NCBI GenBank assembly: GCA_965233585.1
Contig: CBDDTI010000653.1
Coordinates: 1 to 16,235 of the forward strand
Direction: 5' to 3'
From: a bacterium
Lineage (GTDB): Bacteria; SAR324; NAC60-12
Length of the DNA: 16,235 nucleotides
Position numbers and translations under genes: made by a program
In this document: one piece after another, positions 1-16,235 of the stretch
Layout: every line of letters begins with the position of its first letter
Position numbering within the stretch: the stretch's first letter is position 1
The notes under the pieces: generated by a model
What the model was told of the DNA's origin: nothing
Databases searched by the model: none
Seen by the model: the letters and a program-made list of their open reading frames with translations, nothing else

Positions 1-1267
1 GAACTTCAGGATCAGAAGTTACTTGGTTGTAGTTGAAAATGATATTTCTAATAGGATTTTTATACTGATAGCAAATAAGAGGAGGTTCAAGATTCTCGAA
101 ATACTGAGGAATTTTAGAGGTGACTCTATGATCTCTGAAAATGTTGGAAATATTGAGCAAGTCCAAGCCTTGATTAACGAACTTAATTTTGATAAACTGT
201 GTTTTAGGAGGAAGTGTTGGTATGCGGGGAAAGAGTTTATTAAACGAAAAGGCCATAATCATTTTAAGTTTGAATCAATCTGAATGTCGTATACTTCTGC
301 GGTCAGCCTCATCCAGGATTGGTTTCAGTCGAGACACTGGAATAGAAGAGAGTGCATGTAAAAGCTCATGTCGACCGTTATTTTTCGCGATTCGCAAAAG
401 GTCATCCAAGGACCTATTCAGTCTTTGTTTTCTCCTAGAGAGACCATTGCGACGCACACCATGAGATCGACGCTTTCTGCGAACATCTGGTTTTAATGAG
501 AAGACGTTAATGTTTGAGCGTACGGATGATATATTCCCTTGTTGGTAGATCTGGTCATTAAGGCCAAGAGGATACGGTGTCTGTAGTCGCTTTATCCAGT
601 TGAGTTCGGCCGAAAGTCTGTGTTTTTTCATATCATTTTTAGAATCCCCAGGTTGTTTGGAAAGACTTTCAACTGGAGTTATAGTAACATTTTCTATGGA
701 ATGATTATATTTAATGAAGTGATCGTATAAGAAATTCTTGTATTTGCGTCTAGAAATGTTTCGGATTTTAAACGAATGACTGCGGAAGCGACCTTTCAGA
801 CTTTGAGATGTTTCCCCGACGTACTGAGCGCCACAACCCCTGGCTTCTCATGTAATAACGTATATCAAATTTGAACTATTTCAGTCAACATCTTTGTCGA
901 TTTGGATGCCGTATCTGTTGCCATTGATGGAGGATGTTATAGTTGACTTGCATGAGATATGGTGGCATGTTAAACATCTCCTAGCATTGCACATCGATAT
1001 CTTAGAAAACCTTCTGTTAATACGATTAGCAAGACGAAAGGACTTTGCAGTCCGACCTAAGTTAGAAACTGACTGAGGTTTGGAATTTGGGGAACCAAAG
1101 TGAAGGGGAGAAAGTGAAACTTTAGTAGTAGTAAACAGCTTTTTACCAGAAACGCCAGGAAGATGCAGTGAAGATACAGAAGGCAATCTAAGAGGAGTGA
1201 GTAAAATTCGAGGTGATCTATGTTTGCAATTCAATAAATTTGTAGCCATATTGAGGTTCCGGTACAT
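1..1267 (-). CDS. Partial (N-terminal) GIY-YIG/RT polyprotein with in-frame UGA (putative Sec) codons
   Basis: ATG at 1267. The frame continues through TGA at 881-883, 848-850 and 275-277. Reads DVD*NSSNLIYVIT*EARGCGAQYVGETSQSLKGRFRSH ... ELNWIKRLQTPYPLGLND, a PLE GIY-YIG domain. Confidence 0.8.
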
Positions 1268-1414
1268 GTTGGGAAAAGATTCCGTAGTATAAAGGAATCT
1301 ATCACACAACTAAGTCAGAACTCGAATGAGATGAATAATGACACTTTAAACACCCGGACGCGGGGAACCTTGTTACAACGCTCCACACTGCAGCCGAGAA
1401 TAAGTGTAGATATT
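1..1414 (-). mobile_element. Naiad-type PLE unit A (5' part only; runs off the left window edge)
   Basis: Matches 3553-4966 apart from a few SNPs and contains the N-terminal and GIY-YIG coding region. The boundary is inferred from the recurring AAGAGAAAAAGGAAGAGATCTGACTCAG junction. Confidence 0.85.
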
Positions 1415-1638
1415 AAGAGAAAAAGGAAGAGATCTGACTCAGTCCTATGACAAAAGCCCCTAAACCAACAGAAATGTCAAAAGGGCAAAGTGACAACACA
1501 TTACACGTAAGGCATAGATGATAAATATAATATAGCAAAAATATATATGGTGACATCCGAATAGGGCAGGCTATGCTCCGCCCGGCTGAAAGCGAGCTCA
1601 GGTCTGATGGCTGAAGGAGTCCCGACTAACAATCAGAG

Positions 1639-1701
1639 GGGACGAAGATCAGGACCCTGTCGCCTCTGAGGAGGTTTAGACAAGGCCCGTCATATAGTCC
1701 C
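1639..1701 (-). promoter_or_regulatory. SECIS element (eukaryotic type II), unit B
   Basis: Identical to the hairpin at 5424-5486. Confidence 0.85.
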
Positions 1702-1711
1702 AACCGCCTTG

Positions 1712-4700
1712 TTAGTCAGAGTGCAATGCTTTAGGAAAAGTCTGCACAAGGCTGTACAAGGGCCAAGCACGTTTAACTATTTTCGAACCCGACGAGATGA
1801 AATTCGGTGTGTCTTTGACCCTCCTTAGTTTGTAAACTAGATCACCGTAGAAGACCGGGTGAGAGATTCCTTTAAATACATATTCTTGGAACGAAATATC
1901 ACCAAATTTAGACAGAAGTTCGGAGTACGATCTAAAGAACTTTCCAAATGTTTTTCGAAGCTTGTGATATCTATAACCCTGTGTAAGCAGTTTTGAAGTA
2001 ATTTGGAGATTTTTAGAATGGAAATCCAAAACGCTAGTACAACATCTAGCAAATCTAACCAACTGCGAAATGTAAATACCGTAGGATGGGAGTCTTGGAA
2101 CGTCACCACTCAACCATGGGAAATTAACAATAGGAAATCCGAAGTCATCGCGTTTGTCGTAAACGCTGGTATGAATGTCACTGCCAATAACTTTAATATT
2201 TAAATCCAAGAAAGAAGTTTCTTTGTCCGAAGTGTTTGCTTTATTTAACTGAAGTTCTGCTGGATATATGTCGGGAATATATTTCTCAAATTCAGGGTTA
2301 TCGATGGTGAATATATCGTCAAGATATCGAGAGGTATCATTAAACATGTCTATGAGGTCATGACGTTTAGATTTCTGAAGGTCAGACATAAAGTCCCTCT
2401 CATAACAATATAAAAATAAGTCGGCTATAAGTGGAGCACAGTTAGTGCCCATAGGAATCCCTACTATTTGTTGATATACCATGCCATCAAATTGCACATA
2501 TATGTTTTCCATGAGGAAAGTAAAAGCTTCACATAACTCCGCGCAAGACCAACATCTATACGAGTCATATTTCTTGTTGCTAAAAAATCCTGCCTTAAGT
2601 GAAGTACAGAGGTAAGATTTTGACTCTCTGTTGAAACACCAGTTGACCAGAGACAACACTTTTGCTTTGATCAGATCATGTGGCAATGAGGTGTATAAAG
2701 TAGAAAAGTCGAAAGAAGATACTTGAGAACCCTGAAAGTTACGCAGTCGCAACTTTTCGATGACCTCGGAAGAGTTTTTAATGGACCAAAAATAATTGAC
2801 ATTACTATTGCTAAAAGCAGTTTCACTGTACTTCATAACATGATCTTTGACAGCTGTAAGAGCAGATGTAATATGCTTAGAAAGAATGGTAGTAGAGCAG
2901 TGACTTGAATTTGATATAAAACGCGATTTATAAGGACGTTTGTGTAATTTTGGCAACCAATAAAATGTAGGCAGTTCACATTTATCAATTTTGACATTGA
3001 TTTTGGTGAGAGTATTGATGTGATGCACAAGAAGTTGGTCTTTCGTCAACTGAGCAGGTACATATGTACTCGTAGAATTCAATTCCCCTTTCAAAACCTC
3101 CACGTAGTGTCGTTTTCAAATAATGATCACGTTATTCGCTGCTTTATCGGCAGGAGCAAAGACATATTTACGGTGTAATTTCTCCATTTTCTTTTTCAAT
3201 GACTTGACCGAACGACTGGGTGGCTGTTTGTACAAATGTGGATGTTTAGTAAAATTGTCTATTCTGATGTCAATGACGCGTAAAAATTCATTTTTCCAGT
3301 CGTTAAGGGCATGCACTCCGACGCCTTCCTTTTTAGACCAACGTTTACAATATGTCTGAAGTGCATCCTCGACAATATCCCGGCATTTAGTAAAATCAAT
3401 CCTGGATGGAAGTCTATATTTAGGCCCTTTCTTAAAGAGTGACTGTAATCCTTTGTCAGGAATACAAGTAAGGTCACCTGTGACAACATGTCCAGCAGGT
3501 GGATACAGAAACGGCGAGTCCGCACAAGATCATGATGGCTGAATGGAACTCAGAACATCAGGATCAGAAGTTACTTGGTTGTAGTTGAAAATGATATTTC
3601 TAATAGGATTTTTATACTGATAGCAAATAAGAGGAGGTTCAAGATTCTCGAAATACTGAGGAATTTTAGAGGTGACTCTATGATCTCTGAAAATGTTGGA
3701 AATATTGAGCAAGTCCAAGCCTTGATTAACGAACTTAATTTTGATAAACTGTGTTTTAGGAGGAAGTGTTGGTATGCGGGGAAAGAGTTTATTAAACGAA
3801 AAGGCCATAATCATTTTAAGTTTGAATCAATCTGAATGTCGTAAACTTCTGCGGTCAGCCTCATCCAGGATTGGTTTCAGTCGAGACACTGGAATAGAAG
3901 AGAGTGCATGTAAAAGCTCATGTCGACCGTTATTTTTCGCGATTCGCAAAAGGTCATCCAAGGACCTATTCAGTCTTTGTTTTCTCCTAGAGAGACCATT
4001 GCGACGCACACCATGAGATCGACGCTTTCTGCGAACATCTGGTTTTAATGAGAAGACGTTAATGTTTGAGCGAACGGATGATATATTCCCTTGTTGGTAG
4101 ATCTGGTCATTAAGGCCAAGAGGATACGGTGTCTGTAGTCGCTTTATCCAGTTGAGTTCGGCCGAAAGTCTGCGTTTTTTCATATCATTTTTAGAATCCC
4201 CAGGTTGTTTGGAAAGAATTTCAACTGGAGTTATAGTAACATTTTCTATGGAATGATTATATTTAATGAAGTGATCGTATAAGAAATTCTTGTATTTGCG
4301 TCTAGAATTGTTTCGGATTTTAAACGAATGACTGCGGAAGCGACCTTTCAGACTTTGAGATGTTTCGCCGACGTACTGAGCACCACAACCCCTGGCTTCT
4401 CATGTAATAACGTATATCAAATTTGAACTATTTCAGTCAACATCTTTGTCGATTTGGATGCCGTATCTGTTGCCATTGATGGAGGATGTTATAGTTGACT
4501 TGCATGAGATATGGTGGCATGTTAAACATCTCCTAGCATTGCACATGGATATCTTAGAAAACCTTCTGTTAATACGATTAGCAAGACGAAAGGACTTTGC
4601 AGTCCGACCTAAGTTAGAAACTGACTGAGGTTTGGAATTTGGGGAACCAAAGTGAAGGGGAGAAAGTGAAACTTTAGTAGTAGTAAACAGCTTTTTACCA

Positions 4701-4819
4701 GAAACGCCAGGAAGATGCAGTGAAGATACAGAAGGCAATCTAAGAGGAGTGAGTAAAATTCGAGGTGATCTATGTTTGCAATTCAATAAATTTGTAGCCA
4801 TATTGAGGTTCCGGTACAT
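1712..4819 (-). CDS. GIY-YIG-CxC-RT selenoprotein, ~1035 aa, with C-terminus frameshifted by a 53-bp deletion (ends at TAA; possibly defective)
   Basis: One frame with TGA at 4433, 4400, 3827, 3530 and 3116. RT motifs SFDFSTLYT, QIVGIPMGTNCAP and RYLDD are intact. After KIVKR it shifts to AWPLYSLVQTFPKALHSD. Confidence 0.75.
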
Positions 4820-5070
4820 GTTGGGAAAAGATTCCGTAGTATAAAGGAATCTATCACACAACTAAGTCAGAACTCGAATGAGATGAATAATGACACTTTA
4901 AACACCCGGACGCGGGGAACCTTGTTACAACGCTCCACACTGCAGCCGAGAATAAGTGTAGATATTAAGAGAAAAAGGAAGAGATCTGACTCAGTCCTAT
5001 GACAAAAGCCCCTACACCAACAGAAATGTCAAAAGGGCAAAGTGACAACACAAACAACGCCACAAAAAAG

Positions 5071-5197
5071 TTCGATTAAACAGCGGTTGCGGACCGACTT
5101 AGGACGGTCAGTCGGAGTAACTACAGCCACCCAACTGGTGTGGTTAACCGGTTTACGGGCCCACCTTCCCACTAACCGCAACAGCCGTTTAATCAAA
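5071..5197 (-). other. Structured 3' UTR RNA element (22-position closing stem, internal hairpins), unit C
   Basis: UUUGAUUAAACGGCUGUUGCGG pairs with CCGCAACCGCUGUUUAAUCGAA at 21 of 22 positions, including 2 G-U. Internal hairpin CCGACU/AGUCGG. Confidence 0.65.
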
Positions 5198-5423
5198 AGG
5201 ACACACGTTTAAAAATTTGTAAATAAACCTCCTTATATAGACAACAAACCAACAGCCACCCCAAGCGGAGAGGTCATAAAAATCGTTACACGTAAGGCAT
5301 AGATGATAAATATAATATAGCAAAAATATATATGGTGACATCCGAATAGGGCAGGCTATGCTCCGCCCGGCTGAAAGCGAGCTCAGGTCTGATGGCTGAA
5401 GGAGTCCCGACTAACAATCAGAG

Positions 5424-5486
5424 GGGACGAAGATCAGGACCCTGTCGCCTCTGAGGAGGTTTAGACAAGGCCCGTCATATAGTCCC
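5424..5486 (-). promoter_or_regulatory. SECIS element (eukaryotic type II), unit C
   Basis: Sense RNA: GGGAC-UAU-AUGAC-GGGCCUUGUC-U-AAA-CCUC-CUCA-GAGG-C-GACAGGGUCC-UGAU-CUUC-GUCCC. It has helix I (GGGAC/GUCCC), the AUGA/GA core, a 10-bp helix II with 2 G-U pairs, unpaired AAA, and an apical mini-stem CCUC/GAGG. Confidence 0.9.
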
Positions 5487-8400
5487 AACCGCCTTGTTAG
5501 TCAGAGTGCAATGCTTTAGGAAAAGTCTGCACAAGGCTGTACAAGGGCCAAGCACAAGACCTATAGTCGTCTCGATGATCAATGGGTCATACTGTCGTCG
5601 TCGAAGGCGTTTAACTATTTTCGAACCCGACGAGATGAAATTCGGTGTGTCTTTGACCCTCCTTAGTTTGTAAACTAGATCACCGTAGAAGACCGGGTGA
5701 GAGATTCCTTTAAATACATATTCTTGGAACGAAATATCACCAAATTTAGACAGAAGTTCGGAGTACGATCTAAAGAACTTTCCAAATGTTTTTCGAAGCT
5801 TGTGATATCTATAACCCTGTGTAAGCAGTTTTGAAGTAATTTGGAGATTTTTAGAATGGAAATCCAAAACGCTAGTACAACATCTAGCAAATCTAACCAA
5901 CTGCGAAATGTAAATACCGTAGGATGGGAGTCTTGGAACGTCACCACTCAACCATGGGAAATTAACAATAGGAAATCCGAAGTCATCGCGTTTGTCGTAA
6001 ACGCTGGTATGAATGTCACTGCCAATAACTTTAATATTTAAATCCAAGAAAGAAGTTTCTTTGTCCGAAGTGTTTGCTTTATTTAACTGAAGTTCTGCTG
6101 GATATATGTCGGGAATATATTTCTCAAATTCAGGGTTATCGATGGTGAATATATCGTCAAGATATCGAGAGGTATCATTAAACATGTCTATGAGGTCATG
6201 ACGTTTAGATTTCTGAAGGTCAGACATAAAGTCCCTCTCATAACAATATAAAAATAAGTCGGCTATAAGTGGAGCACAGTTAGTGCCCATAGGAATCCCT
6301 ACTATTTGTTGATATACCATGCCATCAAATTGCACATATATGTTTTCCATGAGGAAAGTAAAAGCTTCACATAACTCCGCGCAAGACCAACATCTATACG
6401 AGTCATATTTCTTGTTGCTAAAAAATCCTGCCTTAAGTGAAGTACAGAGGTAAGATTTTGACTCTCTGTTGAAACACCAGTTGACCAGAGACAACACTTT
6501 TGCTTTGATCAGATCATGTGGCAATGAGGTGTATAAAGTAGAAAAGTCGAAAGAAGATACTTGAGAACCCTGAAAGTTACGCAGTCGCAACTTTTCGATG
6601 ACCTCGGAAGAGTTTTTAATGGACCAAAAATAATTGACATTACTATTGCTAAAAGCAGTTTCACTGTACTTCATAACATGATCTTTGACAGCTGTAAGAG
6701 CAGATGTAATATGCTTAGAAAGAATGGTAGTAGAGCAGTGACTTGAATTTGATATAAAACGCGATTTATAAGGACGTTTGTGTAATTTTGGCAACCAATA
6801 AAATGTAGGCAGTTCACATTTATCAATTTTGACATTGATTTTGGTGAGAGTATTGATGTGATGCACAAGAAGTTGGTCTTTCGTCAACTGAGCAGGTACA
6901 TATGTACTCGTAGAATTCAATTCCCCTTTCAAAACCTCCACGTAGTGTCGTTTTCAAATAATGATCACGTTATTCGCTGCTTTATCGGCAGGAGCAAAGA
7001 CATATTTACGGTGTAATTTCTCCATTTTCTTTTTCAATGACTTGACCGAACGACTGGGTGGCTGTTTGTACAAATGTGGATGTTTAGTAAAATTGTCTAT
7101 TCTGATGTCAATGACGCGTAAAAATTCATTTTTCCAGTCGTTAAGGGCATGCACTCCGACGCCTTCCTTTTTAGACCAACGTTTACAATATGTCTGAAGT
7201 GCATCCTCGACAATATCCCGGCATTTAGTAAAATCAATCCTGGATGGAAGTCTATATTTAGGCCCTTTCTTAAAGAGTGACTGTAATCCTTTGTCAGGAA
7301 TACAAGTAAGGTCACCTGTGACAACATGTCCAGCAGGTGGATACAGAAACGGCGAGTCCGCACAAGATCATGATGGCTGAATGGAACTCAGAACATCAGG
7401 ATCAGAAGTTACTTGGTTGTAGTTGAAAATGATATTTCTAATAGGATTTTTATACTGATAGCAAATAAGAGGAGGTTCAAGATTCTCGAAATACTGAGGA
7501 ATTTTAGAGGTGACTCTATGATCTCTGAAAATGTTGGAAATATTGAGCAAGTCCAAGCCTTGATTAACGAACTTAATTTTGATAAACTGTGTTTTAGGAG
7601 GAAGTGTTGGTATGCGGGGAAAGAGTTTATTAAACGAAAAGGCCATAATCATTTTAAGTTTGAATCAATCTGAATGTCGTAAACTTCTGCGGTCAGCCTC
7701 ATCCAGGATTGGTTTCAGTCGAGACACTGGAATAGAAGAGAGTGCATGTAAAAGCTCATGTCGACCGTTATTTTTCGCGATTCGCAAAAGGTCATCCAAG
7801 GACCTATTCAGTCTTTGTTTTCTCCTAGAGAGACCATTGCGACGCACACCATGAGATCGACGCTTTCTGCGAACATCTGGTTTTAATGAGAAGACGTTAA
7901 TGTTTGAGCGAACGGATGATATATTCCCTTGTTGGTAGATCTGGTCATTAAGGCCAAGAGGATACGGTGTCTGTAGTCGCTTTATCCAGTTGAGTTCGGC
8001 CGAAAGTCTGCGTTTTTTCATATCATTTTTAGAATCCCCAGGTTGTTTGGAAAGAATTTCAACTGGAGTTATAGTAACATTTTCTATGGAATGATTATAT
8101 TTAATGAAGTGATCGTATAAGAAATTCTTGTATTTGCGTCTAGAATTGTTTCGGATTTTAAACGAATGACTGCGGAAGCGACCTTTCAGACTTTGAGATG
8201 TTTCGCCGACGTACTGAGCACCACAACCCCTGGCTTCTCATGTAATAACGTATATCAAATTTGAACTATTTCAGTCAACATCTTTGTCGATTTGGATGCC
8301 GTATCTGTTGCCATTGATGGAGGATGTTATAGTTGACTTGCATGAGATATGGTGGCATGTTAAACATCTCCTAGCATTGCACATGGATATCTTAGAAAAC

Positions 8401-8657
8401 CTTCTGTTAATACGATTAGCAAGACGAAAGGACTTTGCAGTCCGACCTAAGTTAGAAACTGACTGAGGTTTGGAATTTGGGGAACCAAAGTGAAGGGGAG
8501 AAAGTGAAACTTTAGTAGTAGTAAACAGCTTTTTACCAGAAACGCCAGGAAGATGCAGTGAAGATACAGAAGGCAATCTAAGAGGAGTGAGTAAAATTCG
8601 AGGTGATCTATGTTTGCAATTCAATAAATTTGTAGCCATATTGAGGTTCCGGTACAT
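5475..8657 (-). CDS. Full-length Naiad PLE polyprotein, ~1060 aa: N-terminal Cys-rich/GIY-YIG endonuclease, CxC linker, reverse transcriptase; 5 putative selenocysteines
   Basis: First ATG at 8657 (open from 8699; a second ATG at 8639 has a better Kozak context). Track ORFs 8271-8699, 7665-8021, 7368-7652, 6954-7154 and 5475-6941 are in one frame, separated only by TGA at 8271, 8238, 7665, 7368 and 6954. Motifs: CxxxxCxxC, LIY...YVGET, *SCADSPFLYPPAGHVVTGDL, DKAANN, YWLPKLHK, SRFI, FDFSTLYT, GIPMG, YLDD, FLDL, YDKRDDF. Confidence 0.9.
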
Positions 8658-8829
8658 GTTGGGAAAAGATTCCGTAGTATAAAGGAATCTATCACACAAC
8701 TAAGTCAGAACTCGAATGAGATATTAAGAGAAAAAGGAAGAGATCTGACTCAGTCCTATGACAAAAGCCCCTACACCAACAGAAATGTCAAAAGGGCAAA
8801 GTGACAACACAAACAACGCCACAAAAAAG

Positions 8830-8956
8830 TTCGATTAAACAGCGGTTGCGGACCGACTTAGGACGGTCAGTCGGAGTAACTACAGCCACCCAACTGGTGT
8901 GGTTAACCGGTTTACGGGCCCACCTTCCCACTAACCGCAACAGCCGTTTAATCAAA
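8830..8956 (-). other. Structured 3' UTR RNA element, unit D
   Basis: Identical to 5071-5197. Confidence 0.65.
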
Positions 8957-9182
8957 AGGACACACGTTTAAAAATTTGTAAATAAACCTCCTTATATAGA
9001 CAACAAACCAACAGCCACCCCAAGCGGAGAGGTCATAAAAATCGTTACACGTAAGGCATAGATGATAAATATAATATAGCAAAAATATATATGGTGACAT
9101 CCGAATAGGGCAGGCTATGCTCCGCCCGGCTGAAAGCGAGCTCAGGTCTGATGGCTGAAGGAGTCCCGACTAACAATCAGAG

Positions 9183-9245
9183 GGGACGAAGATCAGGACC
9201 CTGTCGCCTCTGAGGAGGTTTAGACAAGGCCCGTCATATAGTCCC
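9183..9245 (-). promoter_or_regulatory. SECIS element (eukaryotic type II), unit D
   Basis: Identical to 5424-5486. Confidence 0.9.
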
Positions 9246-12200
9246 AACCGCCTTGTTAGTCAGAGTGCAATGCTTTAGGAAAAGTCTGCACAAGGCTGTA
9301 CAAGGGCCAAGCACAAGACCTATAGTCGTCTCGATGATCAATGGGTCATACTGTCGTCGTCGAAGGCGTTTAACTATTTTCGAACCCGACGAGATGAAAT
9401 TCGGTGTGTCTTTGACCCTCCTTAGTTTGTAAACTAGATCACCGTAGAAGACCGGGTGAGAGATTCCTTTAAATACATATTCTTGGAACGAAATATCACC
9501 AAATTTAGACAGAAGTTCGGAGTACGATCTAAAGAACTTTCCAAATGTTTTTCGAAGCTTGTGATATCTATAACCCTGTGTAAGCAGTTTTGAAGTAATT
9601 TGGAGATTTTTAGAATGGAAATCCAAAACGCTAGTACAACATCTAGCAAATCTAACCAACTGCGAAATGTAAATACCGTAGGATGGGAGTCTTGGAACGT
9701 CACCACTCAACCATGGGAAATTAACAATAGGAAATCCGAAGTCATCGCGTTTGTCGTAAACGCTGGTATGAATGTCACTGCCAATAACTTTAATATTTAA
9801 ATCCAAGAAAGAAGTTTCTTTGTCCGAAGTGTTTGCTTTATTTAACTGAAGTTCTGCTGGATATATGTCGGGAATATATTTCTCAAATTCAGGGTTATCG
9901 ATGGTGAATATATCGTCAAGATATCGAGAGGTATCATTAAACATGTCTATGAGGTCATGACGTTTAGATTTCTGAAGGTCAGACATAAAGTCCCTCTCAT
10001 AACAATATAAAAATAAGTCGGCTATAAGTGGAGCACAGTTAGTGCCCATAGGAATCCCTACTATTTGTTGATATACCATGCCATCAAATTGCACATATAT
10101 GTTTTCCATGAGGAAAGTAAAAGCTTCACATAACTCCGCGCAAGACCAACATCTATACGAGTCATATTTCTTGTTGCTAAAAAATCCTGCCTTAAGTGAA
10201 GTACAGAGGTAAGATTTTGACTCTCTGTTGAAACACCAGTTGACCAGAGACAACACTTTTGCTTTGATCAGATCATGTGGCAATGAGGTGTATAAAGTAG
10301 AAAAGTCGAAAGAAGATACTTGAGAACCCTGAAAGTTACGCAGTCGCAACTTTTCGATGACCTCGGAAGAGTTTTTAATGGACCAAAAATAATTGACATT
10401 ACTATTGCTAAAAGCAGTTTCACTGTACTTCATAACATGATCTTTGACAGCTGTAAGAGCAGATGTAATATGCTTAGAAAGAATGGTAGTAGAGCAGTGA
10501 CTTGAATTTGATATAAAACGCGATTTATAAGGACGTTTGTGTAATTTTGGCAACCAATAAAATGTAGGCAGTTCACATTTATCAATTTTGACATTGATTT
10601 TGGTGAGAGTATTGATGTGATGCACAAGAAGTTGGTCTTTCGTCAACTGAGCAGGTACATATGTACTCGTAGAATTCAATTCCCCTTTCAAAACCTCCAC
10701 GTAGTGTCGTTTTCAAATAATGATCACGTTATTCGCTGCTTTATCGGCAGGAGCAAAGACATATTTACGGTGTAATTTCTCCATTTTCTTTTTCAATGAC
10801 TTGACCGAACGACTGGGTGGCTGTTTGTACAAATGTGGATGTTTAGTAAAATTGTCTATTCTGATGTCAATGACGCGTAAAAATTCATTTTTCCAGTCGT
10901 TAAGGGCATGCACTCCGACGCCTTCCTTTTTAGACCAACGTTTACAATATGTCTGAAGTGCATCCTCGACAATATCCCGGCATTTAGTAAAATCAATCCT
11001 GGATGGAAGTCTATATTTAGGCCCTTTCTTAAAGAGTGACTGTAATCCTTTGTCAGGAATACAAGTAAGGTCACCTGTGACAACATGTCCAGCAGGTGGA
11101 TACAGAAACGGCGAGTCCGCACAAGATCATGATGGCTGAATGGAACTCAGAACATCAGGATCAGAAGTTACTTGGTTGTAGTTGAAAATGATATTTCTAA
11201 TAGGATTTTTATACTGATAGCAAATAAGAGGAGGTTCAAGATTCTCGAAATACTGAGGAATTTTAGAGGTGACTCTATGATCTCTGAAAATGTTGGAAAT
11301 ATTGAGCAAGTCCAAGCCTTGATTAACGAACTTAATTTTGATAAACTGTGTTTTAGGAGGAAGTGTTGGTATGCGGGGAAAGAGTTTATTAAACGAAAAG
11401 GCCATAATCATTTTAAGTTTGAATCAATCTGAATGTCGTAAACTTCTGCGGTCAGCCTCATCCAGGATTGGTTTCAGTCGAGACACTGGAATAGAAGAGA
11501 GTGCATGTAAAAGCTCATGTCGACCGTTATTTTTCGCGATTCGCAAAAGGTCATCCAAGGACCTATTCAGTCTTTGTTTTCTCCTAGAGAGACCATTGCG
11601 ACGCACACCATGAGATCGACGCTTTCTGCGAACATCTGGTTTTAATGAGAAGACGTTAATGTTTGAGCGAACGGATGATATATTCCCTTGTTGGTAGATC
11701 TGGTCATTAAGGCCAAGAGGATACGGTGTCTGTAGTCGCTTTATCCAGTTGAGTTCGGCCGAAAGTCTGCGTTTTTTCATATCATTTTTAGAATCCCCAG
11801 GTTGTTTGGAAAGAATTTCAACTGGAGTTATAGTAACATTTTCTATGGAATGATTATATTTAATGAAGTGATCGTATAAGAAATTCTTGTATTTGCGTCT
11901 AGAATTGTTTCGGATTTTAAACGAATGACTGCGGAAGCGACCTTTCAGACTTTGAGATGTTTCGCCGACGTACTGAGCACCACAACCCCTGGCTTCTCAT
12001 GTAATAACGTATATCAAATTTGAACTATTTCAGTCAACATCTTTGTCGATTTGGATGCCGTATCTGTTGCCATTGATGGAGGATGTTATAGTTGACTTGC
12101 ATGAGATATGGTGGCATGTTAAACATCTCCTAGCATTGCACATGGATATCTTAGAAAACCTTCTGTTAATACGATTAGCAAGACGAAAGGACTTTGCAGT

Positions 12201-12416
12201 CCGACCTAAGTTAGAAACTGACTGAGGTTTGGAATTTGGGGAACCAAAGTGAAGGGGAGAAAGTGAAACTTTAGTAGTAGTAAACAGCTTTTTACCAGAA
12301 ACGCCAGGAAGATGCAGTGAAGATACAGAAGGCAATCTAAGAGGAGTGAGTAAAATTCGAGGTGATCTATGTTTGCAATTCAATAAATTTGTAGCCATAT
12401 TGAGGTTCCGGTACAT
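9234..12416 (-). CDS. Full-length Naiad PLE GIY-YIG-CxC-RT selenoprotein, ~1060 aa
   Basis: Same translation as unit C. In-frame TGA at 12030, 11997, 11424, 11127 and 10713; terminal TGA at 9234-9236. Confidence 0.9.
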
Positions 12417-12667
12417 GTTGGGAAAAGATTCCGTAGTATAAAGGAATCTATCACACAACTAAGTCAGAACTCGAATGAGATGAATAATGACACTTTAAAC
12501 ACCCGGACGCGGGGAACCTTGTTACAACGCTCCACACTGCAGCCGAGAATAAGTGTAGATATTAAGAGAAAAAGGAAGAGATCTGACTCAGTCCTATGAC
12601 AAAAGCCCCTACACCAACAGAAATGTCAAAAGGGCAAAGTGACAACACAAACAACGCCACAAAAAAG

Positions 12668-12794
12668 TTCGATTAAACAGCGGTTGCGGACCGACTTAGG
12701 ACGGTCAGTCGGAGTAACTACAGCCACCCAACTGGTGTGGTTAACCGGTTTACGGGCCCACCTTCCCACTAACCGCAACAGCCGTTTAATCAAA
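12668..12794 (-). other. Structured 3' UTR RNA element, unit E
   Basis: Identical to 5071-5197. Confidence 0.65.
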
Positions 12795-13020
12795 AGGACA
12801 CACATTTAAAAATTTGTAAATAAACCTCCTTATATAGACAACAAACCAACAGCCACCCCAAGCGGAGAGGTCATAAAAATCGTTACACGTAAGGCATAGA
12901 TGATAAATATAATATAGCAAAAATATATATGGTGACATCCGAATAGGGCAGGCTATGCTCCGCCCGGCTGAAAGCGAGCTCAGGTCTGATGGCTGAAGGA
13001 GTCCCGACTAACAATCAGAG

Positions 13021-13083
13021 GGGACGAAGATCAGGACCCTGTCGCCTCTGAGGAGGTTTAGACAAGGCCCGTCATATAGTCCC
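13021..13083 (-). promoter_or_regulatory. SECIS element (eukaryotic type II), unit E
   Basis: Identical to 5424-5486. Confidence 0.87.
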
Positions 13084-16000
13084 AACCGCCTTGTTAGTCA
13101 GAGTGCAATGCTTTAGGAAAAGTCTGCACAAGGCTGTACAAGGGCCAAGCACAAGACCTATAGTCGTCTCGATGATCAATGGGTCATACTGTCGTCGTCG
13201 AAGGCGTTTAACTATTTTCGAACCCGACGAGATGAAATTCGGTGTGTCTTTGACCCTCCTTAGTTTGTAAACTAGATCACCGTAGAAGACCGGGTGAGAG
13301 ATTCCTTTAAATACATATTCTTGGAACGAAATATCACCAAATTTAGACAGAAGTTCGGAGTACGATCTAAAGAACTTTCCAAATGTTTTTCGAAGCTTGT
13401 GATATCTATAACCCTGTGTAAGCAGTTTTGAAGTAATTTGGAGATTTTTAGAATGGAAATCCAAAACGCTAGTACAACATCTAGCAAATCTAACCAACTG
13501 CGAAATGTAAATACCGTAGGATGGGAGTCTTGGAACGTCACCACTCAACCATGGGAAATTAACAATAGGAAATCCGAAGTCATCGCGTTTGTCGTAAACG
13601 CTGGTATGAATGTCACTGCCAATAACTTTAATATTTAAATCCAAGAAAGAAGTTTCTTTGTCCGAAGTGTTTGCTTTATTTAACTGAAGTTCTGCTGGAT
13701 ATATGTCGGGAATATATTTCTCAAATTCAGGGTTATCGATGGTGAATATATCGTCAAGATATCGAGAGGTATCATTAAACATGTCTATGAGGTCATGACG
13801 TTTAGATTTCTGAAGGTCAGACATAAAGTCCCTCTCATAACAATATAAAAATAAGTCGGCTATAAGTGGAGCACAGTTAGTGCCCATAGGAATCCCTACT
13901 ATTTGTTGATATACCATGCCATCAAATTGCACATATATGTTTTCCATGAGGAAAGTAAAAGCTTCACATAACTCCGCGCAAGACCAACATCTATACGAGT
14001 CATATTTCTTGTTGCTAAAAAATCCTGCCTTAAGTGAAGTACAGAGGTAAGATTTTGACTCTCTGTTGAAACACCAGTTGACCAGAGACAACACTTTTGC
14101 TTTGATCAGATCATGTGGCAATGAGGTGTATAAAGTAGAAAAGTCGAAAGAAGATACTTGAGAACCCTGAAAGTTACGCAGTCGCAACTTTTCGATGACC
14201 TCGGAAGAGTTTTTAATGGACCAAAAATAATTGACATTACTATTGCTAAAAGCAGTTTCACTGTACTTCATAACATGATCTTTGACAGCTGTAAGAGCAG
14301 ATGTAATATGCTTAGAAAGAATGGTAGTAGAGCAGTGACTTGAATTTGATATAAAACGCGATTTATAAGGACGTTTGTGTAATTTTGGCAACCAATAAAA
14401 TGTAGGCAGTTCACATTTATCAATTTTGACATTGATTTTGGTGAGAGTATTGATGTGATGCACAAGAAGTTGGTCTTTCGTCAACTGAGCAGGTACATAT
14501 GTACTCGTAGAATTCAATTCCCCTTTCAAAACCTCCACCGACTGGGTGGCTGTTTGTACAAATGTGGATGTTTAGTAAAATTGTCTATTCTTATATAAAT
14601 GATGCGTAAAAATTCATTTTTCCAGTCGTTAAGGACATGCACTCCGACGCCCTTCCTTTTTGGACCAACGTTTACAGTATGTCTGAAGTGCAACCTCGAC
14701 AATATCCCTGCATTTAGTAAAATCAATCCTGGATGGAAGTCTATATTTAGGCCCTTTCTTAACGAGTGACCGTAATCCTTTGCCAGGAATACAAGTAAGG
14801 TCACCTGTGACAACATGTCCAGCAGGTGGATACAGAAACGGCGAGTCCGCACAAGATCATGATGGCTGAATGGAACTCAGAACTTCAGGATCAGAAGTTA
14901 CTTGGTTGTAGTTGAAAATGATATTTCTAATAGGATTTTTATACTGATAGCAAATAAGAGGAGGTTCAAGATTCTCGAAATACTGAGGAATTTTAGAGGT
15001 GACTCTATGATCTCTGAAAATGTTGGAAATATTGAGCAAGTCCAAGCCTTGATTAACGAACTTAATTTTGATAAACTGTGTTTTAGGAGGAAGTGTTGGT
15101 ATGCGGGGAAAGAGTTTATTAAACGAAAAGGCCATAATCATTTTAAGTTTGAATCAATCTGAATGTCGTATACTTCTGCGGTCAGCCTCATCCAGGATTG
15201 GTTTCAGTCGAGACACTGGAATAGAAGAGAGTGCATGTAAAAGCTCATGTCGACCGTTATTTTTCGCGATTCGCAAAAGGTCATCCAAGGACCTATTCAG
15301 TCTTTGTTTTCTCCTAGAGAGACCATTGCGACGCACACCATGAGATCGACGCTTTCTGCGAACATCTGGTTTTAATGAGAAGACGTTAATGTTTGAGCGT
15401 ACGGATGATATATTCCCTTGTTGGTAGATCTGGTCATTAAGGCCGAGAGGATACGGTGTCTGTAGTCGCTTTATCCAGTTGAGTTCGGCCGAAAGTCTGC
15501 GTTTTTTCATATCATTTTTAGAATCCCCAGGTTGTTTGGAAAGACTTTCAACTGGAGTTATAGTAACATTTTCTATGGAATGATTATATTTAATGAAGTG
15601 ATCGTATAAGAAATTCTTGTATTTGCGTCTAGAAATGTTTCGGATTTTAAACGAATGACTGCGGAAGCGACCTTTCAGACTTTGAGATGTTTCCCCGACG
15701 TACTGAGCGCCACAACCCCTGGCTTCTCATGTAATAACGTATATCAAATTTGAACTATTTCAGTCAACATCTTTGTCGATTTGGATGCCGTATCTGTTGC
15801 CATTGATGGAGGATGTTATAGTTGACTTGCATGAGATATGGTGGCATGTTAAACATCTCCTAGCATTGCACATCGATATCTTAGAAAACCTTCTGTTAAT
15901 ACGATTAGCAAGACGAAAGGACTTTGCAGTCCGACCTAAGTTAGAAACTGACTGAGGTTTGGAATTTGGGGAACCAAAGTGAAGGGGAGAAAGTGAAACT

Positions 16001-16146
16001 TTAGTAGTAGTAAACAGCTTTTTACCAGAAACGCCAGGAAGATGCAGTGAAGATACAGAAGGCAATCTAAGAGGAGTGAGTAAAATTCGAGGTGATCTAT
16101 GTTTGCAATTCAATAAATTTGTAGCCATATTGAGGTTCCGGTACAT
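13072..16146 (-). pseudogene. Disrupted Naiad polyprotein
   Basis: An extra C at ~14651 shifts the frame into a TAA. The 109-bp deletion removes the KYVFAPADKAANNVIII*KRHY segment. TGAs at 15760, 15727, 15154 and 14857 are retained, and the RT core (13072-14538) is intact. Confidence 0.8.
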
Positions 16147-16235
16147 GTTGGGAAAAGATTCCGTAGTATAAAGGAATCTATCACACAACTAAGTCAGAAC
16201 TCGAATGAGATGAATAATGACACCTTAAAACACCC

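Follow-up and report, generated by a model that had tools for sequence, protein, structure and literature searches.

A probable form-2 SECIS at the end of the reading frame of a Naiad-type Penelope-like retroelement from an assembly filed as bacterial

The stretch of DNA analysed here (the window) is the whole of contig CBDDTI010000653.1 (16,235 nt; hereafter C653) of assembly GCA_965233585.1, which is filed under the bacterial lineage SAR324. The window was found to consist solely of head-to-tail copies of one unit, about 4.3 in number and on the minus strand, with spacings of 3552, 3838, 3759 and 3730 nt, and no flanking host or bacterial gene was detected beside the array between positions 1 and 16235. 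Where the unit is complete, it carries a long open reading frame (ORF), intact or damaged, at the end of which lies a 100-nt hairpin. The hairpin at positions 5406–5505 is the subject of this study. It had been predicted from the sequence to be a canonical type II selenocysteine insertion sequence (SECIS) on an extended basal stem, and thus to support the decoding of in-frame UGA codons as selenocysteine (Sec or U). The main features of the window are as follows.

1..16235, minus strand: head-to-tail array of about 4.3 units (self-comparison and unit mapping)
1621..1720, minus strand: identical copy of the candidate SECIS (100 of 100 nt; Rfam match at 1639–1701) after an ORF that has lost 53 nt some 50 nt before the element
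5406..5505, minus strand: the extended candidate SECIS under study (sequence, minimum free energy fold and covariation in relatives)
5475..8699, minus strand: intact ORF of 1074 codons with five internal UGAs (ORF reading)
9165..9264, minus strand: identical copy of the candidate SECIS after an intact ORF (identity and Rfam match)
9234..12458, minus strand: second intact copy of the ORF (ORF reading)
13003..13102, minus strand: identical copy of the candidate SECIS after an ORF with a 109-nt deletion and a 1-nt insertion (identity and Rfam match)

The three central units are only 0–1 substitutions apart, plus a few indels. Those between the ORFs include a 79-nt and a 233-nt deletion, and frame-breaking indels within the ORF were found in two of the four complete units. 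All 100 nt of the hairpin are identical at the four 3' ends, even in a unit with a deletion, just as had been predicted, and about 540 nt of the unit remain 3' of the hairpin before the next ORF begins. A second tandem array of the same element, with four SECIS copies and a protein 95.6% identical to that of the window, occupies contig C448 (positions 1–15171) of the same assembly.

Every part described in the original prediction for the minus strand of 5406–5505 was recovered when the RNA was folded to its minimum free energy (MFE) structure, and the parts are arranged as follows.

5504–5494 paired with 5417–5407, minus strand: basal helix of 11 pairs (10 Watson–Crick, one U-G)
5486–5482 paired with 5428–5424, minus strand: helix I, GGGAC/GUCCC, 5 bp
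5478–5475, minus strand: AUGA core, followed by C; 5' half of the kink-turn quartet
5473–5464 paired with 5446–5437, minus strand: helix II, 10 bp (MFE fold)
5462–5460, minus strand: AAA of the UAAA that the MFE fold leaves unpaired; distance from the quartet 12 nt
5459–5456 paired with 5451–5448, minus strand: mini-stem of 4 bp with a 4-nt loop (MFE fold)
5436–5433, minus strand: 3' UGAU, the 3' GA side of the quartet
5424..5486, minus strand: match to RF00031 (SECIS_1), model positions 1–64 of 64, 42.8 bits

The AAA thus lies in an internal loop and is followed by an extra mini-stem, which is the feature of form 2. The basal helix, which had been described as nine Watson–Crick pairs plus flanking pairs, does exist and its 5' arm does reach into the ORF, but the count has to be amended to the 11 pairs given above. 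G-U or U-G pairs make up three of the 30 pairs of the whole structure. The claim that these pairs work only on the sense strand of the element was borne out by the antisense fold, where helix II is interrupted at the three G-U pairs, which turn into mismatches. Each unit likewise has, as had been noted, a single SECIS for five internal in-frame UGAs.

When the whole window was searched against Rfam, SECIS_1 was found at four sites (42.8 bits against a gathering score of 35, E 5.8e-06) and no other family exceeded its gathering score, while the antisense strand of the element had no Rfam match; comparison with the Rfam SECIS model had been proposed together with the prediction, and the outcome is a match above the curated cut-off on the sense strand only. 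A search of the complete 12.0-Mb assembly with RF00031 yielded only eight copies, all of this element and shared equally by C653 and C448 (four each), and none of 14 control prokaryote genomes contained a match. The C448 copy scored 42.1 bits and those of two more distant relatives 39.3 (L009) and 29.2 bits (L010), the last of which is under the cut-off. The 100-nt sense RNA folds with an MFE of −48.1 kcal/mol (z −5.9), a value reached by none of 200 shuffled sequences, and the antisense fold (−36.1 kcal/mol, z −3.5) is 12 kcal/mol weaker. With form 2 of RF00031 the element shares the AUGA...GA quartet, the 10-bp helix II, the unpaired AAA 12 nt after the quartet, the mini-stem, helix I and the sense-strand specificity. 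It differs from RF00031 in the additional 11-bp basal helix beyond an internal loop, in the coding nature of its 5' 31 nt and in that a few relatives have GUGA or UUGA in place of AUGA.

The covariation of the hairpin was assessed with relatives collected by a search with the reverse transcriptase (RT) alignment, namely 24 loci in contigs of 'prokaryote' genomes and 80 in metagenome contigs. A covariance model (R1) built from the window, C448 and L009 also matched antisense copies at E 1e-6 to 1e-3. The model was rebuilt from nine clean rows (R2). A MAFFT alignment that took in L010 misaligned the basal stem and was set aside. R2 gave 37 matches at E≤1 in 97 sources (306,793 nt), every one of them on the coding strand. 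These were located at the end of the ORF except for the weakest (L088, E 0.48), which is inside the RT, and that of L056, which is the end of the preceding unit in a tandem pair. Among 30 distinct elements of relatives, 90.4% of the cells pair as opposed to 65.1% after shuffling, with 0 of 500 shuffles reaching the observed value, and the covariation score is 0.657 as compared with 0.235 for shuffled rows and 0.11–0.14 when the partners were slid. Changes on both sides were seen in 29 of the 30 base pairs (basal helix 10/11, helix I 5/5, helix II 10/10, mini-stem 4/4), and RNAalifold, applied to the same rows, found all four helices unaided. Covariation across the family, the other check proposed with the prediction, was therefore strong in all four helices including the extended basal stem. 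The mini-stem, in which 92.7% of the cells pair and all four pairs show compensatory changes, upholds the type II label.

The core UGA is conserved in the relatives along with AA and the 3' GA, and AAA is present in most of them; three loci have G or U as the first base of the core. The SECIS of C653 and C448 differ at three positions, all unpaired, and one of these differences adds a pair. The relative protein P0019 was observed to continue in frame past the position of the core UGA, with Trp for the stop, into the hairpin; judged from its sequence, this would be a copy with an altered SECIS core.

The window ORF (5475..8699, minus strand) comprises 1074 codons counted from the first start-like codon. 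UAA and UAG are absent from it and UGA occurs five times internally, as against 38 and 107 stops in the two remaining frames over the same stretch. All five UGAs are on the same strand as the SECIS, 1479–2796 nt upstream of its core. The ORF uses 26 ordinary Cys codons (TGT/TGC) and eight Trp codons (TGG), and therefore UGA is not a general Cys or Trp codon here. Between C653 and C448, where all five UGAs are conserved, dS is 0.18, dN 0.019 and dN/dS 0.10. The segments between the UGAs that contain differences have dN/dS values of 0.02–0.38, codons 144–154 being without differences. This comparison of the two arrays shows that purifying selection acts on the ORF across the five UGAs. Furthermore, 62 of the 64 in-frame stops listed in 16 near-full-length relatives are TGA, and both TAA codons belong to one damaged copy. 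The number of UGAs per near-full-length relative ranges from two to six.

The product of the ORF was compared by eye with the published Naiad proteins. Craig, Yushenova, Rodriguez and Arkhipova (2021; PMC8557442; cited here for the parts of the article and supplement that were available) described four Naiad families, two from clams and two from spiders, with three or four in-frame UGAs at conserved Cys positions and a SECIS right after the ORF, and called them the first selenoprotein-encoding transposable elements described. The N-terminal half of the window protein aligns with Naiad_Mmer and Naiad_Scon of that supplement, with two U residues coinciding, and its motifs IYVIT-U, YVGET, R..H, E and N, also read by eye, are of the GIY-YIG type. 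The features of the Naiad clade found here are the CxC motif between endonuclease (EN) and RT (U-S-C in the window) and tandem insertion. No canonical hammerhead ribozyme was seen in the window, where SECIS_1 alone passes the Rfam gathering scores. For the RT piece, an AlphaFold model with a mean predicted local distance difference test (pLDDT) score of 79.4 was obtained, and its 16 best Foldseek matches in the PDB were all telomerase RT (TERT), with E values down to 5e-09. A relationship to telomerase RT is expected for Penelope-like elements. A sequence-profile search of the PDB with the RT alignment gave chance-level matches only. Judged from the comparison by eye with the printed sequences and from the predicted structure, the element is a Naiad-type Penelope-like retroelement with an N-terminal GIY-YIG-like region and a telomerase-like RT.

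The five UGAs of the window ORF are placed in this protein as follows.

8271..8273, minus strand: UGA codon 143, which in the description of PMC8557442 is the CCHH finger's first Cys; core 2796 nt downstream; column of 32 sequences with 16 U and 16 C
8238..8240, minus strand: UGA codon 154, at the Cys that directly precedes 'YVGE', a motif of the GIY-YIG type; column of 32 sequences with 17 U and 15 C
7665..7667, minus strand: UGA codon 345, never Cys in relatives; kept in the C448 array
7368..7370, minus strand: UGA codon 444, first position of the CxC linker motif (here U-S-C, residues 444–446); UGA or Cys in relatives, with few exceptions (D, T, Y, E)
6954..6956, minus strand: UGA codon 582, eight residues past the DKA motif; core 1479 nt downstream; all relatives that cover it have UGA or Cys

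Four of the five UGAs thus align with Cys in relatives, and no residue other than U or C occurs in columns 143 and 154 when 32 sequences of the endonuclease region are aligned. Position 345 is occupied in relatives by L, N, Y, R, H, K and others, with Arg in the closest relative, L033. An extra UGA was observed at a Cys of an N-terminal CxxC-type finger (query position 112) in L047, L058, L062–L064, L066 and L070, and L047 has six in-frame UGAs. According to PMC8557442, the clam UGAs take the place of three cysteines: the first one of the CCHH finger, the one preceding GIY-YIG and the one eight residues past DKA. The last two of these UGAs are present in all published families. UGAs 143, 154 and 582 of the window are exactly at these published clam positions. 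Like clam Naiad_Mmer and Naiad_Scon, the element has one ORF with a GIY-YIG-type N-terminus and a C-terminal RT, is arranged in tandem, and has one SECIS right at the end of the ORF as in the published Naiads. It differs from these in having five UGAs (two to six in its relatives) instead of three or four, with one additional predicted Sec at the CxC motif and one at the non-Cys position 345.

The linkage between UGA and SECIS was examined in those loci that cover at least one of positions 143, 154, 444 and 582 and have at least 200 nt of 3' flank, a SECIS being scored as a model match at E≤0.01. A SECIS was present in 22 of 26 UGA-bearing loci and in none of 29 UGA-free loci. The SECIS-bearing loci form one clade with about 45–72% identity to the window protein. 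The Cys-only loci L084 and L087, at about 55% identity, are still without a SECIS despite their closeness. These two loci, as well as L065 and L075, carry Cys for UGA at 582 (and at 444 where this is covered) and have no SECIS model match; Sec and Cys forms therefore alternate among fairly close relatives.

The SECIS and the ORF overlap. The first in-frame stop of the window ORF is the UGA at 5477–5475, which is at the same time the UGA of the AUGA core, so that the ORF takes in the first 31 nt of the 100-nt element, up to and including the core UGA, and the SECIS is not wholly in the 3' untranslated region, there being no UAA or UAG upstream of it. The core UGA is the first stop in the window, C448, L009 (60% identity) and L033 (72%). 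In 22 of the 34 loci scored, the first stop is a UAG or UAA that precedes the core UGA by 10 nt; it belongs to the 5' strand of helix I and is found 16 nt into the element. In L060 the first stop is 9 nt upstream of the core UGA, in L049, L034 and L054 it is a UGA at the foot of the basal stem, which is also the arrangement printed for Naiad-Mmer (PMC8557442), and in six loci it is 34–69 nt upstream of the core UGA, that is 8–41 nt before the start of the element. In most of the clade, therefore, the ORF includes the 5' arm of the basal stem, and the protein tail is conserved down to 50% identity. L049 resembles the 39 nt that are printed for Naiad-Mmer in its ORF end and the start of its SECIS, and the UGA stop is shared.

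The UGA inside the window SECIS should terminate translation, since the structure would be unwound once the ribosome arrives there. The same argument has been made, with reference to studies of position dependence, for a UGA 7 nt upstream of a SECIS (PMC8557442). In the available text of that paper the SECIS begins 1–21 nt after the stop by SECISearch3 bounds, the stops being UAA or UAG 1–21 nt upstream or UGA 7 nt upstream, and all four published elements are labelled type I. The window differs in that its first stop is the core UGA itself and its clade, with a covarying mini-stem, is of form 2; neither the mini-stem, nor a basal stem overlapping coding sequence, nor the core UGA as first stop was found in those parts of the paper. 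A precedent for a eukaryote-type SECIS that overlaps coding sequence and can work is the fowlpox virus SECIS inside a coding region (Nucleic Acids Res 2006/2007, PMC1802603), as far as the available part of that article describes it. The overlap in the window differs from it in that only the 5' part is involved, at the ORF end, with the stop codon within the element. SELENOP, as described in PMC8557442, is similar in having several UGAs in one ORF with a 3' SECIS, and bivalves are described there as Sec-rich in SelP. SELENOP has two SECIS and the window one for its five UGAs, and the window product is an endonuclease-RT, not a selenium carrier.

The assembly in which the array is found (12.0 Mb in 747 contigs) is filed as a prokaryote with a stated contamination of 2.09%. 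ORFs of at least 150 codons cover less than 30% of the sequence in 589 contigs (5.97 Mb) and at least 70% in only 19 contigs (3.29 Mb), and therefore about half of the bin is not bacterial-looking. The GC content of C653 (39.7%) is close to that of the bin (39.8%), and GC does not separate ORF-rich from ORF-poor contigs. Eighteen further contigs match the window protein, with a close RT fragment on C487 and 17 distant GIY-YIG/RT pieces. One protein relative is filed under the metagenome-assembled genome (MAG) of a lucinid-clam symbiont, DNA relatives are present in other host-associated 'bacterial' assemblies, and the element was encountered in public runs of two organisms as well as in marine plankton, water and sediment metagenomes (8 studies). 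The array is almost certainly animal DNA mis-binned in a bacterial assembly, and the source animal is probably a bivalve.

In the public run of one organism, 25,500 contigs matched the unit at 88% identity or more. Many copies in public runs are truncated or rearranged. With contig depth as a rough measure only, the summed depth in that run was about 400-fold higher in the bin of the SECIS (5400–5513) than at the 5' end of the ORF, and this gradient suggests very many 5'-truncated copies that end in the SECIS. The two commonest variants of the element among contigs of public runs are an unpaired U>C and a change of the U-G pair 5468/5442 to U-A.

From these results we conclude with considerable confidence that the 100-nt hairpin functions, or functioned until very recently, as a eukaryotic form-2 SECIS in a Naiad-type Penelope-like retrotransposon. 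The host of this retrotransposon would be a marine invertebrate, probably a bivalve, and the element's DNA was binned in a bacterial MAG. The SECIS most likely lets the enzyme of the element be made through five apparent stop codons. The structure of the hairpin, its covariation, its occurrence together with UGA in the relatives, the purifying selection across the UGAs and the Rfam match, all of them observed here, agree with the original prediction that the SECIS is independent support for Sec decoding. In the mechanism that we propose, the element would be transcribed from the minus strand, host SBP2 would bind the kink-turn formed by AUGA and GA, and with eEFSec and tRNA-Sec the five UGAs 1.5–2.8 kb upstream would be read as Sec to give one 1074-residue endonuclease-RT. 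Four of the five Sec residues would replace conserved cysteines that are probably zinc-binding or structural. The long basal stem, specific to this lineage, has its 5' arm, along with helix I, inside the ORF, and the core UGA, the first in-frame stop in this subfamily, would not be recodable by a ribosome that has already melted the element.

Several points weigh against this interpretation. The location of part of the element in coding sequence is unusual for a eukaryotic SECIS, and UGA 345 is no substitute for a Cys: either it encodes a Sec where constraint is lacking, resembling the odd one reported for Naiad_Scon (PMC8557442), or it is something else. Four UGA-bearing loci, L046, L058, L059 and L060, are without a model match at E≤0.01. 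Of these, L060 has an R2 match at E 0.015 and L058 contains, at 3596–3700, a SECIS-like hairpin with AAA in the apical loop (type I-like) that was missed by R2 and Rfam, an observation that also concerns locus L061, while L046 and L059, both with UGA and 3' flank, gave no SECIS by model, Rfam or fold and are perhaps decayed copies. L065, with Cys at 582 and its upstream part uncovered, has a sub-threshold Rfam SECIS match of 28 bits. The split between UGA-bearing and UGA-free loci is partly phylogenetic because the SECIS-bearing loci form one clade, and the alignment used for covariation was fitted to the structure of the model, which favours structure. Pfam searches of the whole protein, the EN region and the RT piece found nothing above threshold (only RVT_1 at E 0.078), and residues 100–260, the GIY-YIG region, matched no family. 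The only contigs from RNA libraries are eight short pieces from one seawater metatranscriptome, one of them identical over 5286–5415; they may be DNA carry-over and are too weak for a claim of transcription. A tRNA-Sec was not found in the assembly, a result of little weight with only a fraction of the host genome present. Finally, the binding of SBP2, the insertion of Sec and the termination at the core UGA are steps that we infer from sequence and structure.

Some of the same observations could be read differently. The basal stem exceeds the 64-position Rfam model and yet covaries like the core (10 of 11 pairs), the hairpin lies near the 3' end of the unit, and the peak of depth in the SECIS bin fits 5'-truncated copies primed from the 3' end, all of which would suit a hairpin that serves mainly in retrotransposition, e.g. 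as a 3' RNA handle for the element's own RT in target-primed reverse transcription, its SECIS features being secondary or shared (dual function). We regard this as unlikely, as a general handle should be common to the UGA-free relatives but is absent from all 29 of them, the invariant positions are exactly those of the SECIS signature (core UGA, AA and 3' GA), and the roughly 540 nt of unit beyond the hairpin mean that it is not at the very 3' end. It could also be argued that an ORF open and selected across its UGAs shows decoding but not the residue inserted, and that the UGAs are read through or reassigned without Sec (by near-cognate Trp, Cys or Arg, or in a variant nuclear code), with the hairpin as a read-through stimulator. 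This is very improbable in our view, because UGA is found almost only at Cys columns in an ORF where the 26 TGT/TGC and eight TGG codons are used normally, because L049, L034 and L054 appear to terminate at the UGA at the base of the basal stem, and because the hairpin scores above the curated SECIS cut-off.

The frame-breaking indels in two of the four complete window units and the many truncated or rearranged copies in public runs might suggest dead pseudogenes, in which the UGAs would be nonsense mutations and the hairpin a product of chance or a relic. This explanation is hardly tenable against a dN/dS of 0.10 at dS 0.18 between the arrays with all five UGAs kept, a share of 62 TGA among 64 in-frame stops in the relatives and compensatory change in 29 of 30 pairs. 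As to the location of the array, its filing in a prokaryote assembly with 2.09% contamination and its GC content, which fits that of the bin, would be in keeping with an array truly residing in a bacterial chromosome after horizontal transfer. To this we attach next to no credence: the contig holds the array alone, about half of the bin is not bacterial-looking and 18 further contigs carry matching pieces, relatives are found in other host-associated 'bacterial' assemblies as well as in runs from marine plankton and sediment, and a eukaryotic SECIS has no known function in bacteria.

A further and decidedly speculative proposal, which we put forward as doubtful though worth stating, is that the SECIS has been built into the gene end, with basal stem and helix I coding and the UGA of the kink-turn as terminator in the window subfamily. 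The finishing ribosome would then have to melt the element, which could link the decoding of Sec with termination and with the passage of the RNA from translation to reverse transcription. The long basal stem peculiar to the clade could let one SECIS serve two to six UGAs, and thousands of 5'-truncated copies would scatter ready-made SECIS through the host genome.

Selenoprotein-coding Naiads with a SECIS had already been published for clams and spiders (PMC8557442), and the window element is a further member of this group. A full-text literature search revealed no other paper joining SECIS with Penelope-like elements or retrotransposons, and knowledge of selenoprotein-coding transposons has so far come from that one paper and its four families. 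Relative to its available parts, the following appear to be additions: a covariation-backed SECIS model with mini-stem and long basal stem; the merging of SECIS and ORF end, with putative termination at the core UGA in the window subfamily; wider numbers and positions of Sec (two to six, the CxC motif and one non-Cys site); and the presence, in one clade, of forms with Sec and forms with Cys. In marine samples this clade is broad, with at least 26 loci that have UGA at Cys positions and with two to six UGAs per element, and throughout it the SECIS is fused to the ORF end. The alternation of Sec and Cys among close relatives offers a natural system for studying Cys-to-Sec switching and the acquisition of SECIS. 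The case also illustrates that abundant animal repeats with apparent stops can hide in bacterial bins that pass contamination checks.

In the same assembly, the region of about 450–6150 on contig C418 was found to carry a tRNA cluster (Ser-UGA, Ser-AGA, Met and Ile). It holds both false tRNA-Sec matches, that is, the two candidates that RF01852 had placed above its cut-off (48.2 against 47) and that ARAGORN identified as tRNA-Ser.

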